Origin: an uncultured bacterium
GTDB lineage: Bacteria; Patescibacteriota; Microgenomatia; UBA1400; UBA12108
Assembly: GCA_903945195.1 (NCBI GenBank)
Contig: CAJAUT010000023.1
Coordinates: 1-59,204, forward strand
Direction: 5' to 3'
DNA: 59,204 bases
A program made the position numbers and the translations under genes. This document shows positions 6,443-46,520 of this stretch, piece by piece (position 1 is the stretch's first letter; the number at the start of each line of letters is the position of its first letter). The notes beneath the pieces were generated by a model that was not told the origin of the DNA, ran no database searches, and saw only the letters and a list, made by a program, of their open reading frames with translations.

Positions 6443-6959
6443 CAATTTTGTCGCCAATATTTATTTGTTAATTCTAAGATTATACCTTAGAAAGTGAAGA
6501 GTAAGATTACAGTATCAAGCTATTCGTTTGATCATGCGGTCGCCTGAGGCGACCCGCCAGTCACCATAGATTATGATGTTGGCGGACAGGTTAGCTAAAC
6601 ACATTGCTGTGCGTACACTTCCTGCCGATAACCTGGTGGTCTTCCAGGGATCTAACGTCATCTTACGATGACAAGGAATTCTCATCTTGGGGCGTGCTTC
6701 CCGCTTAGATGCTTTCAGCGGTTATCACTAACCATCGTAGCTACTCTGCTATGCGCCTGACGGCTACAACAGAAACACTAGCGGATGGCTCACTCCGGTC
6801 CTCTCGTACTAAGAGCAACTCCCCTCAAAATTCCAACGCTGACAACGGATAGAGACCGACCTGTCTCACGACGGTCTGAACCCAGCTCACGTAGCGCTTT
6901 AATGGGCGAACAGACCAACCCTTAGGACCTTCTCCAGCCCTAGGATGCGCTGAGCCGAC

Positions 6960-7250
6960 CAAAATACATAGATGTTAGATAAGGTGTATATGGATCTCAA
7001 TTATTACTAATTGTTTGGACTATATCTTTAATACTTTCATTCATAAAACCACGGAATGATTTAGTATATGTTGGCGTATTATAGCGATATCTAGTCGCTA
7101 TCTCTCGCCTGAGGCGAGAAGTCTCTACGGGGGGTGTATACAGCTATGCTGTTATACGCCCTTCCCACGGTGTTAGCCTAAAGTGTTCAATCTTAGGTAT
7201 TCTCCGTTATAAGCCAAATTTATTTCCTCGACATGTTTTGGGTATTTTCT
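6960..7250 (-). ncRNA. ORF-less group I intron in 23S at E. coli position ~L2504
   Basis: Splits CCTCGAT|GTCGGCTC; follows U and ends in G; GTCGAGG guide pairs with the 5' exon (U-G); contains AGAGACT and AAGATATAGTCC core elements. Confidence 0.88.
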
Positions 7251-7815
7251 ATCGAGGTAGCGAACTGCACCGTCGCTGTGGACGCTCAGGTGCAACTACT
7301 CTGTTATCCCCGGGGTAGCTTTTATCCGATAAGCCCGGTACCTCCCACGAAGTACACGAGGATCACTAGGTCCGACTTTCGTCTCTGCTTGACTTGTATG
7401 TCTCACAGTCAGGCATCCTTATGCCCTTGCACTATCATTCCGATTTCCATCCGGAATTAGGATACCATTGCGCGCTTGCGGTACTCTTTAGCAAGCAACC
7501 TCCCCAGTTAAACTGCCTCCCAGACAGTGTCCTCTTTCTCGATCCAGAGAAATAAGTAAGAATCTCACGTTTCAAAGAGTGGTATTACAGTTGTCGCCTT
7601 GCGGCTCCCACCTATGCTACACAGTCAAAACATAAAATTCAGTGTCAAGGTACAGTAAAGCTCCACGGGGTCTTTTTGTCCTGTTGTCAGTAGGCCGCAT
7701 CTTCACAGCCATTTCAATTTCGCCGAGTCCCTCCTCAAGACAGTTTCAAAGTTGTTACGCCATTCGTGCAGGTCGGAACTTGCCCGACAAGGAATTTCGC
7801 TACCATAGAACAGTT

Positions 7816-43262: not shown

Positions 43263-43799
43263 ATGGATACCAAGAATACAAAAGACACGAATGAACTATA
43301 TAATCTAGTAATTGATGCGCTGGAAGATGGTGTCTGGGATTGGGACGTACCTACGGGACAAGCATACTTTACTCCTAGATACTTTGAAATGCTCGGGTTT
43401 GAAGACAATGAATTCCCCGCAACCTATAATCAATGGATCACAATGGTTTTTCCAGATGACAAAGACCGTATAGAAGCTGAACTACAGGCAGGAGTAGCAT
43501 CTGGAAAGAAATTTGTGGTGGATGTACGACTAAAGAGAAAAGATGGGACCTACGGATGGTATTCTACGCACGGCAAGACGATAACTAAAAACATAGATGG
43601 ATCTGCCAAGCGAATGGTAGGTACACTAACAGATATTTCTGACATCAAAAATGCTGAGGCAGAACTTGAGAAATCTAGATTATTAATAGAAGAAAAATTC
43701 CAGGAAACTAATAAACTAAATGGGCTGACGGTGGACCGTGAATTAAAGATGGTCAAGATGAAAGAGCAGATCAAAGAGTTGGAGAGCAAGATCAAGTAG
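43263..43799 (+). CDS. stand-alone PAS/PAC domain protein with C-terminal coiled coil
   Basis: DGVWDWD, EMLGF, FPDD, RLKRKDG, RMVGTLTDIS; no output domain. Confidence 0.85.
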   Translation: MDTKNTKDTNELYNLVIDALEDGVWDWDVPTGQAYFTPRYFEMLGFEDNEFPATYNQWITMVFPDDKDRIEAELQAGVASGKKFVVDVRLKRKDGTYGWYSTHGKTITKNIDGSAKRMVGTLTDISDIKNAEAELEKSRLLIEEKFQETNKLNGLTVDRELKMVKMKEQIKELESKIK

Positions 43800-43826
43800 A
43801 TATAGCTATTTTTTGAAGTGATGGCC

Positions 43827-46520
43827 TCAACCGCGATGAGAAGGATCATTGATCATGCCACATTTTTTCCATTTCTTACCACTGCCGCAGGGACAGAGGT
43901 CGTTGCGACCGATGCGGACTTTGGAGTCTTCTACTTTCCCCTCTGATTTGATCACATCATTCCTTCGACTGCGCTCAGGACCTACGCCTTCGGCTTCGGC
44001 TTTGCGAAGTACTACTTTAGGCTGTGGTGCGGGTTGTGCCACTGGGTTTAAGCGATAAATCTTTTTGACTACTTCGCTTTCGACTGAGCCTATGAGTCTC
44101 TCAAACATGGCATAGGATTCTTTTTGGTACTCTACCAGTGGGTCGCGCTGGGCGTAGCCACGAAGACCTATACCGTCTCGCAGACTCTCCATATTGTCTA
44201 GGTGATCCATCCATTTTTCATCTAGCGTAGTGAGGTAGACATATTTTTCGATCTCGCGAGTCGTGGGTTCTCCGATGGATTTTTCTCTAGCATCATAGGT
44301 ATCACGAGCGATATCTTTTAATGACTTGATAATTGTTTCTGGGCTCTTGGTTTTACCTAGTTCTTTGACTAGGTGTGCACCTGAGGCATCGTCAAATGGG
44401 ATGATGGTGATAAATTCTTTGACTATTGCGTCGATTTCTTTAACACTTAAACCTTCAGTGATACGTGAGTTTACAAGTAACTCTATCTCTTCATTTATTA
44501 AATCCATCATGCGAGTACGCAGACTAGAGGAATCATTTTCTGCATCGGATAGCAACTTGTTTCTAAGCTGATAAATGACCTGCCTGTGCTTGTTCATGAC
44601 GTCGTCGTAGTCCACGACACGTTTGCGCATATCAAAGTAAAAACCTTCGACTTTGACCTGGGCAGACTCTAGAGCTTTAGAAACCATTGAGTGCTCTATG
44701 GCTTCGTCTTCGGGGATCTTGAGCATAGTCATGATGCCAGCGATTTTGTCACCGCCAAAGATGCGCATGAGATCGTCTTCTAGTGAGACATAAAACCTAG
44801 ATGATCCTGGGTCACCTTGGCGACCAGAACGACCACGTAGCTGATTGTCGATGCGGCGACTATCATGACGCTCGGTACCGATGACGTGGAGCCCACCAGC
44901 TTCTAAAACCTTTTTGTGAGCTATTTCCCAGTTTTTTTTATCCATGGTATTTTTGTCACCACCTAGGACGATGTCGACACCGCGACCGGCGATATTGGTA
45001 GCTACCGTGATACCACCGTATTTACCAGCGTTGGCGATGATAGAAGCCTCTTCTGTATGGTTTTTGGCGTTGAGGACGTTGTGGGGCAAGTTTTTACGTT
45101 TTAAATATTTAGAAATAATTTGGTTGTTGTCGATGGATTTGGTACCGATTAGCACTGGCTGCCCTTTAGCGTGGAGCGTCTCTACCTCTTTGACGATAGC
45201 AGCATACTTAGCACGAGTGGTCTTGTAGATAAAATCAGTATGATCCTTGCGCGCCACATCGCGGTGGGTAGGGATTACGGCGACATCGAGATTATAGATC
45301 TTTTTAAATTCCTCACCTTCCGTGCTAGCGGTACCTGTCATGCCTGAGAGATGTTCGTACATGCGGAAATAGTTTTGCAAAGAGATAGTGGCTAGCGTGC
45401 GAGATTCTTGTTGGACGTTTACACCTTCCTTGGCTTCGATAGCTTGATGGAGTCCGTCAGAGAACCTGCGGCCATACATCATACGACCAGTATGTTCGTC
45501 TACGATGATGACCTCGCCGTCTTTGACGACATAGTCACGATCGCGTTCAAAAAGGGTCGCAGCCTTTAGAGCTTGCTCGACGTGGTGGACAGATTCGTAA
45601 CTTTCCTCGTATAGATTTTTCACTCCGAGTCTCTGCTCTAGGCGGCGGATGCCGTAGTCTGTAAGCGTGGCAGTTTTTAGCTTTTCGTCGACGTCGTAGT
45701 CGGTATCTTTGGCTAAAGTGGTGACCATCTTGGCATACTCTGGATATTTGTCGGTGGAACCTGAGTCTGGGGCGGAGATGATTAGGGGGGTGCGAGCCTC
45801 GTCGATCAAAATAGAGTCGACTTCGTCGACTATGGCATAGTAGTGGCCGCGCTGGACCTTGTCACTGAGTCTGTGCACCATGTTGTCGCGTAGATAATCG
45901 AAGCCAAATTCGTTGTTGGTACCGTACGTTACGTCAGCTAAATAGCTTTCCTGGCGAGGGACGCGGCGAAAATGTTTGAGCCGCTCATCATCTTCCCCTG
46001 GTTCTTCGTGCTTGAGATCTAGGAGGCCACCTGGCTGGTCGCCCATACCAGAATAGATCACTCCGACATTTAAACCAAGTAGTAGATGAGCACGACCATA
46101 CCAGCCGGCGTCGCGCCTGGCTAGATAATCATTGACAGTCACGATGTGGACTCCTTTACCGGAGAGGGCGCGGATATAACTAGCTAGAGTCGCGGACAAA
46201 GTCTTACCTTCACCTGTCTTTTGCTCAGCGATGCGACCATTGTAGAGAGATAGGGCGGCAAGGAGCTGTACATCGTAGGCACGCTCCCCTGTGACGCGGC
46301 GGATGGACTCGCGGATAGTGGCCAGGGCTTCTGGCAAGATATCATCCAGTGTTTCACCACCGGCGAGTCTTTTTTTGAACTCGGCGGTCTTGCCTGGAAG
46401 TTCTTTGTCTTTGAGTTTTTTGATAGATTCTTCAAAGGCATTTACCTTGGCTACGACCGGAGTAAATTTGTCTAGTTGCCTGGAGTTGCCATCAAATAGT
46501 TTGGACAAGAAATTTAGCAT
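43827..46520 (-). CDS. secA: preprotein translocase ATPase SecA
   Basis: KTGEGKT, DEVDSILIDEARTPLIIS, QLRGRSGRQGDPG, C-terminal GRNDLCPCGSGKKWKKC. Confidence 0.97.
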   Translation of the reverse strand: MLNFLSKLFDGNSRQLDKFTPVVAKVNAFEESIKKLKDKELPGKTAEFKKRLAGGETLDDILPEALATIRESIRRVTGERAYDVQLLAALSLYNGRIAEQKTGEGKTLSATLASYIRALSGKGVHIVTVNDYLARRDAGWYGRAHLLLGLNVGVIYSGMGDQPGGLLDLKHEEPGEDDERLKHFRRVPRQESYLADVTYGTNNEFGFDYLRDNMVHRLSDKVQRGHYYAIVDEVDSILIDEARTPLIISAPDSGSTDKYPEYAKMVTTLAKDTDYDVDEKLKTATLTDYGIRRLEQRLGVKNLYEESYESVHHVEQALKAATLFERDRDYVVKDGEVIIVDEHTGRMMYGRRFSDGLHQAIEAKEGVNVQQESRTLATISLQNYFRMYEHLSGMTGTASTEGEEFKKIYNLDVAVIPTHRDVARKDHTDFIYKTTRAKYAAIVKEVETLHAKGQPVLIGTKSIDNNQIISKYLKRKNLPHNVLNAKNHTEEASIIANAGKYGGITVATNIAGRGVDIVLGGDKNTMDKKNWEIAHKKVLEAGGLHVIGTERHDSRRIDNQLRGRSGRQGDPGSSRFYVSLEDDLMRIFGGDKIAGIMTMLKIPEDEAIEHSMVSKALESAQVKVEGFYFDMRKRVVDYDDVMNKHRQVIYQLRNKLLSDAENDSSSLRTRMMDLINEEIELLVNSRITEGLSVKEIDAIVKEFITIIPFDDASGAHLVKELGKTKSPETIIKSLKDIARDTYDAREKSIGEPTTREIEKYVYLTTLDEKWMDHLDNMESLRDGIGLRGYAQRDPLVEYQKESYAMFERLIGSVESEVVKKIYRLNPVAQPAPQPKVVLRKAEAEGVGPERSRRNDVIKSEGKVEDSKVRIGRNDLCPCGSGKKWKKCGMINDPSHRG

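Follow-up and report, generated by a model that had tools for sequence, protein, structure and literature searches.

What are the short palindromic sequences that recur in unrelated genes of this bacterium, and are they tied to any enzyme? The window is the whole stretch of DNA analysed here, 59,204 nt of contig CAJAUT010000023.1 (assembly GCA_903945195.1; this genome is G000 in the comparisons). The host is a CPR bacterium of the Microgenomates group, with a genome of about 1 Mb. An initial annotation had listed several hairpin motifs, and all of their coordinates proved correct, for example motif A at 16700 and 23778, B at 16580, 18583 and 18654, and E at 6541 and 7106. The reading that we favour, with a probability of about 0.78, is that the repeats of the window belong to a REP/REPIN-type population tied to RAYT (Y1, HUH) genes located elsewhere in the genome.

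Sequences of this kind abound throughout the genome. There are 387 14-mers occurring at least four times, against 5-9 in three shuffles; perfect palindromes number 98 (20-28 in shuffles), and 23-nt near-perfect palindromes 80 (10-15 in shuffles), among which four families of 6-13 copies can be recognized. Counting k-mers upheld A, B, F, the secA motif and the heptamers (D) as multi-copy families, far above shuffled controls, but not E, an 11-mer with only two exact copies in the genome, nor the ftsE motif C1 and the singletons S1-S3 (20938, 22040, 53577), all unique at up to 3-5 mismatches. The hairpin nature ascribed to the motifs also stood in part: A, B and F fold better than shuffles, whereas C1 (z about 0), the secA motif C2 (z -0.08) and the heptamer block D1 (z -0.9) do not, and are therefore not hairpins.

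Family A is a 23-nt palindrome present at 13 genome sites with at most one mismatch, while the reversed control pattern gave none; for the motif at 16700 and its inverted copy at 23778, 0 of 100 shuffles gave a match. The family occurs in 5 of the 11 genomes of the genus and in none of 30 genomes outside it. Its two copies in the window are the following (here and below, no strand is assigned to a repeat unless given):

16700..16726: A1, family A REP, a 27-nt perfect palindrome with the 23-nt family core at 16702-16724.
23777..23799: A2, family A REP in the endonuclease IV gene nfo (23351-24190, minus strand); its outermost base is the single mismatch.

A1 lies in frame in a gene (16577-17365, minus strand) for a secreted, membrane-anchored protein, and folds as single-stranded DNA with -14.8 kcal/mol (z -5.9). 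A2 overlies native nfo codons without changing the length of the gene, 27 of 28 aligned orthologues being gap-free at this slot; in an AF2 model (pLDDT 94.4) it is predicted to cover the end of helix 117-133 and the loop preceding strand 141-144. By a crude gene caller, which over-calls (94% coding), 11 of the 13 family-A copies are located in genes, as are 11/13, 7/11 and 3/6 copies of three other palindrome families; 10 of 12 family-A sites fall in ORFs of at least 189 aa. Reading phases 0, 1 and 2 are used by 2, 1 and 7 family-A sites, resulting in three different peptides, and the repeat is therefore a DNA-level element and not a protein motif. The host genes include nfo, uvrC, fmt, CobA/CobO, two glycosyltransferases and a ComF-like gene, whereas other families reside in rarA/mgsA, mnmA and hisS. 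That the reading frame is kept in real genes, as first proposed, was borne out by in-frame copies in nfo, secA, truB, the Peptidase_C39_2 gene and others. On either side of 9 exact and 11 looser family-A copies the sequence is not conserved beyond the palindrome, and no conserved tetranucleotide of the GTAG/CGTC type was found.

The window itself holds no HUH gene, in agreement with the initial annotation, which had seen no mobilising enzyme in it. One transposase is present, within an IS256/IS1249-like IS unrelated to the repeat families. The connection to HUH/RAYT enzymes that the same annotation had suggested was recovered by searching for Y1 genes flanked by the hairpins: sister genomes supplied it for family A, and G000 for three further families. 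In G010, G005 and G007, four family-A copies with matching spacings are found before, twice inside and after one RAYT gene (RAYT-A), which scores 37.7 bits as Y1_Tnp (cut-off 23 bits). In a profile of 16 RAYT sequences, both histidines of the HUH motif and a tyrosine at the catalytic position are invariant, and the best solved relative of this profile is the TnpA-REP of E. coli (4ER8, E 1e-7). On these sequence features, the genes fit the definition of RAYT-type Y1 transposases with the HUH motif and a predicted catalytic tyrosine. G000 contains five Y1_Tnp matches, one of the IS200 type and four RAYT-like. Three of the latter (C7b, C25 and C6) are each bracketed by a palindrome family of their own; near the fourth (C7a) there are single palindromes. 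The family that brackets the RAYT-like gene on contig C25 is also represented in the window:

11778..11801: 23-nt REP of another family, directly past the stop codon of a Bact_hydrolase gene (11802-12362, minus strand); fold z -3.6.

Of RAYT-A, G000 keeps only a tail fragment, 81% identical to the RAYT-A tail, the front having been replaced by a nucleotidyltransferase/HepT-like gene pair. Because of this truncation the earlier description of the system as "active" is unsupported, and family A is probably a relic in G000 by now. Several points weigh against the RAYT-linked reading. Thirteen A copies persist in G000 although their RAYT is broken; no RAYT or other enzyme was found adjoining B, F, the secA motif or the heptamers; a single-sequence search with RAYT-A against solved structures gave nothing significant; and family A shows neither the extragenic location that defines REPs nor their tetranucleotide tag, nor slot lengths that suit the insertion of a 23-nt unit.

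This last point comes from a comparison of 18 slots among orthologues. Relatives without the palindrome are 9-21 nt shorter in uvrC, a glycosyltransferase on contig C30, CobO, secA and rarA; at fmt the differences range from -3 to +9 nt, at ComF there is only +3 nt, and in nfo and hisS the palindrome overlies native codons with no indel. The net differences for the family-A slots (0, +21, -3 to +9, +9, -15 to -6, +9 to +15, and +3 nt) do not, therefore, fit a simple insertion of the 23-nt unit. The anticipated presence/absence among orthologues was indeed seen for uvrC, CobO, secA, rarA and the B element, but it is not "clean", given that the lengths mostly do not equal one element and that two slots are free of indels. 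At 14 of the 18 slots, another genome carries a different repeat. The slot of A1, for instance, holds a different 23-nt palindrome in G009, a third one in G010 and G001, and none in six genomes, and the nfo slot of G002 is occupied by a different perfect palindrome.

Could the palindromes instead be hairpins selected by the host, serving as binding sites or as structural signals in mRNA or DNA, fixed by selection and no longer mobile, with a historical or incidental link to RAYTs? The hisS slot speaks for such a view. It shows no indel in 29 orthologues, and paired base changes keep its coding palindrome intact: among 20 distinct family-level sequences, 82% of the cells are paired (74% in shuffles), covariation scores 0.298 (0.153 in shuffles, 0 of 500 attaining the observed value), and two pairs alternate between G-C and A-U types at positions that are otherwise synonymous. 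In the same direction point the thirteen A copies that outlasted an intact RAYT-A, and the constant length of A1, A2 and B in strains from two studies. These three repeats are present without indels in contigs from 4 runs (A1 with 0 differences in the covering contigs of two other runs, A2 spanned gap-free by contigs of 3 runs), and are therefore not assembly artefacts. We nevertheless consider host selection an unlikely origin, since identical 23-nt sequences occur in unrelated genes and in three phases, the copy sets of G000 and its sister G010 differ (for example at nfo, the A1 host and one glycosyltransferase), copies flank and lie within a RAYT gene, and no common gene class or position points to a joint regulatory role.

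Longer elements are represented in the window by family B:

18583..18666: complete family B element, a REPIN-like REP doublet of 84 nt whose two 13-nt ends are inverted and each palindromic.
16580..16592: isolated end of a B-type element, supplying the last codons of gene 16577-17365 at its 3' end.

The complete copy follows roughly the fourth codon of the Peptidase_C39_2 gene, in frame, and folds with -23 kcal/mol (z -6.4); the start codon of this gene overlaps the stop of ftsX. In its build the copy fits the REPIN definition, in which two REP units in opposite orientation, separated by a short spacer, make up a single long hairpin. About 35 elements of the genome, this one included, have a common end core (41 exact matches; 151 with at most one mismatch against some 62 expected), with end spacings in classes of 26-28, 47 and 70-74 nt. 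Among 10 genomes of the genus, only G000 (84 nt) and G010 (87 nt) carry B at this gene, and the remaining eight show an unchanged gene start with a plain signal peptide. Where G000 has the isolated end (16580), a short but complete element spans the stop codon in G002, and in G010 the same ends belong to a second type of element.

With its inverted ends, its lack of coding capacity and its all-or-none presence in the C39-like gene, B could be taken for a MITE- or RPE-like non-autonomous transposon, whole units being inserted by a DDE-type or unknown transposase and the RAYTs being unrelated neighbours. In-frame genic insertion is also how Rickettsia RPEs behave (PMC3733652), and an IS256/IS1249-like IS is active in the population. 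Of the features that define a MITE, the inverted ends were found, but neither a target-site duplication at the window B site against eight empty sites, where about 6 nt adjoining the element are replaced, nor, in G000, a B-type end pair bracketing a gene. No parent IS sharing the B-type ends was found, the ends of the window IS have no kinship to any repeat family, and the sole gene consistently bracketed by family A is a RAYT; such an origin is hence quite improbable. As for B itself, one diverged B-type unit lies about 240 nt from the C25 RAYT, and no RAYT of G000 is bracketed by B-type ends.

The remaining motifs are heterogeneous. Family F comprises about 20 genome copies of a hairpin of about 39 nt, and for 10 of these a tRNA gene (the genome has 47) lies no more than about 320 nt away. 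Around the tRNA genes of the window we find:

10837..10875: F1 hairpin, in spacer DNA 19 nt from the 5' end of tRNA-Ala; fold z -3.3.
11212..11250: F2 hairpin, in spacer DNA about 60 nt upstream of tRNA-Ile.
10676..10745: D1 heptamer block, in spacer DNA that separates tRNA-Ala from the 23S gene.

The supposed invasion of rRNA and tRNA genes did not hold. Both tRNAs are intact, no repeated 14-mer or 23-nt palindrome was found inside the 16S and 23S genes, and neither mature rRNA nor mature tRNA contains a repeat; the additional segments of the rRNA genes are probably introns of a group-I-like kind. The second copy of E is in one of them, a 333-nt insert located where the 23S model has 40 positions and scoring 32.4 bits with Rfam Intron_gpI (E 2.7e-6), under the gathering score of 50 bits.

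Three further segments are read within proteins:

39983..40006, plus strand: D2, three tandem heptamers in frame in truB (TRF period 7, 3.1 copies).
43961..43980: C2, a 20-nt dispersed motif in frame in the C-terminal linker of secA.
19564..19622 (approximate): ftsE tail segment of about 51 nt, in frame, containing C1 (19566-19585).

Heptamer arrays related to D1 are present at several other sites, and TRF at a low threshold gives 55 period-7 and 61 period-8 rows for the genome. At the truB position, eight other genomes of the genus have tandem 7- or 8-nt repeats of different units, one of them common to G004 and G007, and G010 has two palindromes. C2 has five genome copies at up to 3 mismatches, three of them in called genes and in two phases. 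At secA, 4 of the 11 genomes in the genus have it; in six more the site is shorter by 9-12 nt. Other hairpins are present at this site in G009, one of these six, and in G001. The ftsE segment is absent from the sister genome G010, and the C-terminal tail is hypervariable, the proteins ranging from 224 to 253 aa across 10 genomes. Chance matches, low-complexity coding sequence or assembly artefacts account for part of the list (the two copies of E, the unique C1 and S1-S3, and the shuffle-like folds of C1, C2 and D1) but are a most improbable explanation of the whole, excluded by shuffle controls for A, B, F and the genome at large and contradicted by the same copies in sister genomes and independent runs; for A, B and F they are refuted by the control pattern, the shuffles and the independent-run contigs.

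The closest known systems are the REP/REPIN-RAYT systems (REPtrons) of Proteobacteria, such as E. coli TnpA-REP with REP/BIME and the REPINs of Pseudomonas (PMC3686654, PMC3733652; see also PMC2817692, PMC3116915, PMC3479197). Both have families of short dispersed palindromes, each matched to one Y1/HUH gene bracketed by its copies, inverted-unit doublets (B type here), and related genomes with different palindrome classes beside related RAYTs; TnpA-REP is, moreover, the best solved relative of the enzyme. Unlike in REPtrons, most copies here are intragenic and in frame, two copies lie inside the coding sequence of the RAYT, family A shows no tag of the GTAG/CGTC type, families have about 6-13 copies instead of hundreds, some copies overlie native codons without indel, and the host belongs to the CPR and has a genome of about 1 Mb. 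The system is an intragenic variant of REP/RAYT systems. Intragenic GTAG/CGTC REPs lie, according to Di Nocera et al. 2013 (PMC3733652), in genes for known proteins, many of replication or repair (uvrA/B). The repair-gene hosts found here (uvrC, nfo, rarA) and the reading as extra residues recall them. Yet those copies are a minority of mostly extragenic families and are called insertions, whereas here a genic location is the rule, and slots are common to different families and heptamer arrays.

The RPEs, which the same source mentions as in-frame palindromic repeats in genes that stay functional (PMC3733652), resemble our repeats in behaviour. They belong to a different lineage, and the unit here is of 23 nt, or 84-90 nt for doublets. 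RPEs are not known to have a dedicated enzyme. Elhai and colleagues reportedly described, in 2008, short tandem heptamer repeats (STRR) of cyanobacteria together with small dispersed repeats. Likened by description, our heptamers fit an STRR-like definition, head-to-tail 7-nt units that are dispersed and genome-specific, scattered alongside very small hairpin repeats; unlike STRR, the arrays are here in frame in genes and have slots in common with REPs.

Under the RAYT-linked reading, the basic unit is a palindrome of 23 nt, its 11-bp stem closed by a 1-nt loop, of which several sequence families exist, and the longer B-type elements consist of two such units in inverted order with a spacer between them. 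Most copies are intragenic and are read in frame as a few residues, forming loops, linkers, tails or the heads of signal peptides. They are confined to a limited set of permissive slots, each of which may over evolutionary time lose its occupant or exchange it for a tandem heptamer array or a different palindrome family. The paired changes that preserve the hisS palindrome count in favour of this reading as well. RAYTs would probably move or renew the copies by acting on them as single-stranded hairpins, and B, F, the secA motif and the heptamers may take part in the same process as the RAYT-linked palindromes.

A bolder version of this scenario, which we put forward tentatively as it is probably not the correct one, is that hairpins and the heptamer arrays sharing their slots are not inserted, and instead overwrite codons at permissive positions by a templated, conversion-like, RAYT-linked process, being kept palindromic and periodically rewritten to the current family of the genome. 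Overwriting would fit the lack of indels at nfo (27 orthologues) and hisS (29 orthologues), the mere +3 nt of ComF, the differing repeats at 14 of 18 slots, and the hisS palindrome, confined to one bacterial family, with its paired changes at synonymous sites. If true, this small genome would harbour a system that overwrites sequence throughout the genome, essential genes such as hisS, nfo, secA and uvrC included.

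The short repeats of the window are best read as a REP/REPIN-RAYT system (palindromic REPs, their inverted doublets and the Y1/HUH genes associated with them) lying mostly inside genes. The genome under study (1.05 Mb in 34 contigs, 42% G+C), which belongs to a CPR bacterium, contains far more short repeats and palindromes than its shuffled versions: 387 14-mers occur at least four times, against 5-9 in shuffled genomes, and there are 98 perfect palindromes (20-28 in shuffles) and 80 near-perfect 23-nt palindromes (10-15 in shuffles). Every motif listed in the initial annotation is present at the coordinates reported there, in a region made up of an rRNA block (5S, 23S, tRNA-Ala, tRNA-Ile, 16S) and ordinary housekeeping genes, which include ftsE, ftsX, a release factor, nfo, truB and secA on the minus strand. 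Not all of the claimed repeat families withstood a genome-wide count. Family A, a 23-nt palindrome, has 13 sites at no more than one mismatch, versus none for a control pattern; the hairpins of family F (~39 nt) occur in about 20 copies and the secA motif in 5, the 84-nt element with inverted ends (family B) is one of ~35 elements sharing a common end core, and the heptamers were accepted as a real repeat family. On the other hand, family E, with 2 exact copies only in the genome, was rejected as a family, and neither the ftsE motif nor any of the three singletons counts as a repeat, each being unique in the genome. The ftsE and secA motifs had also been described as hairpins, but they fold no better than shuffles and were discarded as such together with the heptamer block in the spacer (fold z about 0 to -0.9); A, B, one F copy (F1) and an extra REP at 11778 do fold better than shuffles.

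The clearest link to a mobilising enzyme comes from family A. Its conserved unit is the 23-nt palindrome, with unrelated flanks among copies, and it is found in 5 of the 11 genomes of the genus (13, 13, 7, 6 and 3 sites) and in none of 30 genomes outside it. In three of these genomes, four copies with matching spacings lie before, twice inside and after a single gene, which is intact in the sister genomes and is a Y1_Tnp by profile score. The two histidines of its HUH motif and one tyrosine are invariant in an alignment of 16 sequences. A search of solved structures with the single sequence returned nothing significant, and a profile search succeeded, giving E. coli TnpA-REP (4ER8) as the best solved relative, ranked above the ISDra2 transposase. 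Since the palindromes bracket a Y1/HUH gene whose best solved relative is TnpA-REP, family A is identified as a REP together with its own RAYT. The initial annotation had proposed a search for RAYT-type genes flanked by the same hairpins, and its expectation was borne out for family A, in the sister genomes, and for three other families. The genome under study keeps only the last 67 residues of the family-A RAYT (81% identity), starting at an internal palindrome, and in place of the gene's front stand a nucleotidyltransferase gene and an NTase_sub_bind/HepT-like gene. In this genome the family is probably a relic. The other Y1 genes of the genome are one of the IS200 type and four RAYT-like ones (35-57% identity to the family-A RAYT), three of them bracketed by a palindrome family of their own and the fourth (C7a) with single palindromes nearby only. 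One REP of a RAYT-bracketing family falls in the window.

RAYT remnant and REP of a RAYT-bracketing family
Contig C24, 2538-3524 (locus L172): what is left of the family-A RAYT unit; flanking palindrome, nucleotidyltransferase gene, NTase_sub_bind/HepT-like gene, then the last 67 RAYT codons
Window, 11778-11801: REP of a RAYT-bracketing family, directly past the stop codon of the hydrolase gene

Ten of 12 family-A sites fall within ORFs of 189-445 aa, and the genes that hold them can be recognised; in the window these are the gene of a conserved secreted, anchored protein (copy A1) and nfo (copy A2). Three reading phases are used among the sites, and the resulting peptides are of three kinds, indicating that the conserved thing is the DNA and not the protein. 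A crude gene caller, which over-calls (94% coding) and whose genic fractions for the long hairpin families are not to be trusted, assigns 11 of 13 A copies to genes, and the values for the other 23-nt families are comparable; this genic share is close to the density of coding sequence, which means that these palindromes do not avoid genes.

We compared 18 slots, the gene positions that hold the repeats, with those of genus relatives. Presence and absence of a segment in orthologues, the check proposed initially, is clear at several of them. The B element follows about codon 4 of a C39-like gene in the genome under study (84 nt) and in the sister genome G010 (87 nt), with the frame open in both, and eight other genomes lack it with the same C39-like start codon, overlapping the ftsX stop. 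The secA motif is carried by 4 of 11 genomes, six others being 9-12 nt shorter, and palindrome-free genomes are 9-21 nt shorter at the uvrC, glycosyltransferase, CobO and rarA slots. Length differences at the fmt slot range from -3 to +9 nt; the ftsE tail exceeds that of G010 by 51 nt, but this tail is variable everywhere. Other patterns go against simple insertion. At 14 of the 18 slots, the position is occupied in another genome by some other repeat, either a palindrome of another family, a variant with paired changes, a secA-type motif or a heptamer array. The truB slot contains tandem 7- or 8-nt repeats with differing units in 8 other genomes of the genus (G004 and G007 share one) and two palindromes in G010, and uvrC and fmt each have a second slot, both of which hold one identical, different palindrome in G010.

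Second slots in uvrC and fmt
Contig C25, 48626: second palindrome of uvrC, of another family
Contig C19, 54545: second palindrome of fmt, of another family

Net length changes at the family-A slots are 0, +21, -3 to +9, +9, -15 to -6, +9 to +15 and +3 nt. Such lengths and changes of occupant do not fit simple insertion.

Two slots lack indels almost or entirely. The nfo slot has the same length in 27 of 28 aligned orthologues, sampled out to order level, one of which (G002) carries a different perfect palindrome; in an AF2 model (pLDDT 94.4), the A2 segment forms a helix end and the loop preceding a barrel strand. The second case is a palindrome in hisS.

Palindrome in hisS
Contig C10, 34257-34279 (loci L187-L216): 23-nt palindrome within the match to the HisRS anticodon-binding domain

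This slot is of equal length in 29 of 29 orthologues, and 9-11 of the 11 possible pairs form in all 11 genomes of the genus. Ten further genera of the family are represented by five genomes with 9-10 pairs and five with 6, and eight order-level genomes show 4-6. Pairing is maintained by two-sided changes (20 distinct sequences from one bacterial family), one pair being G-C in 10 and A-U in 7, and another C-G in 7, U-A in 5 and A-U in 4. The covariation score is 0.298 versus 0.153, is reached by none of 500 shuffles, and is lower in slid controls. Some of the covarying sites are synonymous, which indicates a constraint or mechanism acting on the nucleic acid. The centres of the hisS palindromes are similar to one REP family or another depending on the genome.

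Precise excision and re-insertion are known from IS200/IS605 biology, and repeated rounds of such events at permissive target sites could, by analogy, have given rise to the shared slots. Such a process would explain these slots, but not the cases without indels. Templated replacement of sequence may be involved, or selection for a function of the hairpins. Slots without indels, and slots shared among repeat families, point to a replacement or conversion step.

Both A copies of the window and the B element were found without indels in contigs of four lake-water runs from two studies, whose strains are at most a few percent apart. No strain-level gain or loss of any of the three was seen in these contigs, which says nothing about activity because contigs drop rare variants. 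The window also contains an insertion sequence.

Insertion sequence of the window
22138-23276 (1139 nt): insertion sequence with 33-nt inverted ends, 88% complementary
22176-23021, minus strand: transposase ORF of 281 aa, matching IS1249 and IS256-variant models

Both model matches (E about 1e-31) are below the curated cut-offs. In one study, three runs have contigs in which position 22137 is joined to 23277, so some strains do not have the element. It has a single copy in the genome; a relative on contig C6 is 34% identical. This IS256/IS1249-like element is unrelated to the hairpin families.

The idea that the repeats had invaded rRNA and tRNA did not hold: no family member lies within any mature RNA gene, and both tRNAs are intact. 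The 23S gene (6560-10532) spans 3973 nt for a model of 2925 positions, an excess of about 1 kb that is due to two group-I-like inserts, whose Intron_gpI matches (32.4 and 30.4 bits) do not reach the gathering score; one is ORF-less and the second has a LAGLIDADG_1 ORF at 7952-8452. The conserved 3' end of the 16S (anti-Shine-Dalgarno) lies near 12546-12531, ~700 nt past the end of the Rfam match, and a LAGLIDADG_3 ORF (12621-13205) stands in between, suggesting that the 16S also has an insert near its 3' end (12531-13237), hidden by the model alignment. One E copy is in the 23S-5S spacer, immediately beyond the 23S 3' end; the other lies in the ORF-less insert. The two hairpins (6537-6555 and 7102-7120) are perfect over 7 bp and have the 3-nt loop and the inner 4 bp in common, and their outer 3 bp differ between the sites yet stay complementary. 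The F hairpins occupy spacers adjoining the tRNAs, one on the 5' side of each, which fits the genome-wide bias of the family, with 10 of its ~20 copies within ~320 nt of one of the 47 tRNA genes. Stop-to-stop frames revealed no convincing coding remnants in the tRNA spacers. The tRNA-Ile is on the strand opposite to the 16S, tRNA-Ala, 23S and 5S (10745-12362), and a Bact_hydrolase gene is located between the 16S and the tRNAs.

A parent transposon for B was rejected, as no end pair brackets any gene. Throughout the genome, the end spacings of the B-type doublets give most copies a length of 81, 84 or 87 nt, a multiple of three even in intergenic copies. Between the convergent truB and Ham1-family genes there is an AT-rich palindrome (40383-40398), whose family has 8 copies, all intergenic by the crude gene calls, and which may therefore be a two-way terminator.

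Intragenic REPs and RPEs are described in PMC3733652, and PMC3686654 reports that REP class co-varies with orthologous RAYTs. PMC6006769 makes no mention of 'Candidatus' or of CPR group names. In full-text searches we found no paper combining RAYT or REPIN with CPR or Patescibacteria, and no published description of RAYT/REP systems in CPR bacteria was found.

REPs are by definition extragenic. In contrast to the classical ones, the system described here is mainly genic, in a genome of ~1 Mb, so that each event leaves a footprint datable against a conserved protein alignment. To our knowledge, the mode by which RAYTs spread REPs is still unknown, and a replacement or conversion step would bear on the long-term uniformity of REP populations. 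The annotation and phylogenetics of CPR bacteria would also be affected, as short stretches of housekeeping proteins would be set at the DNA level and not by selection at the protein level.
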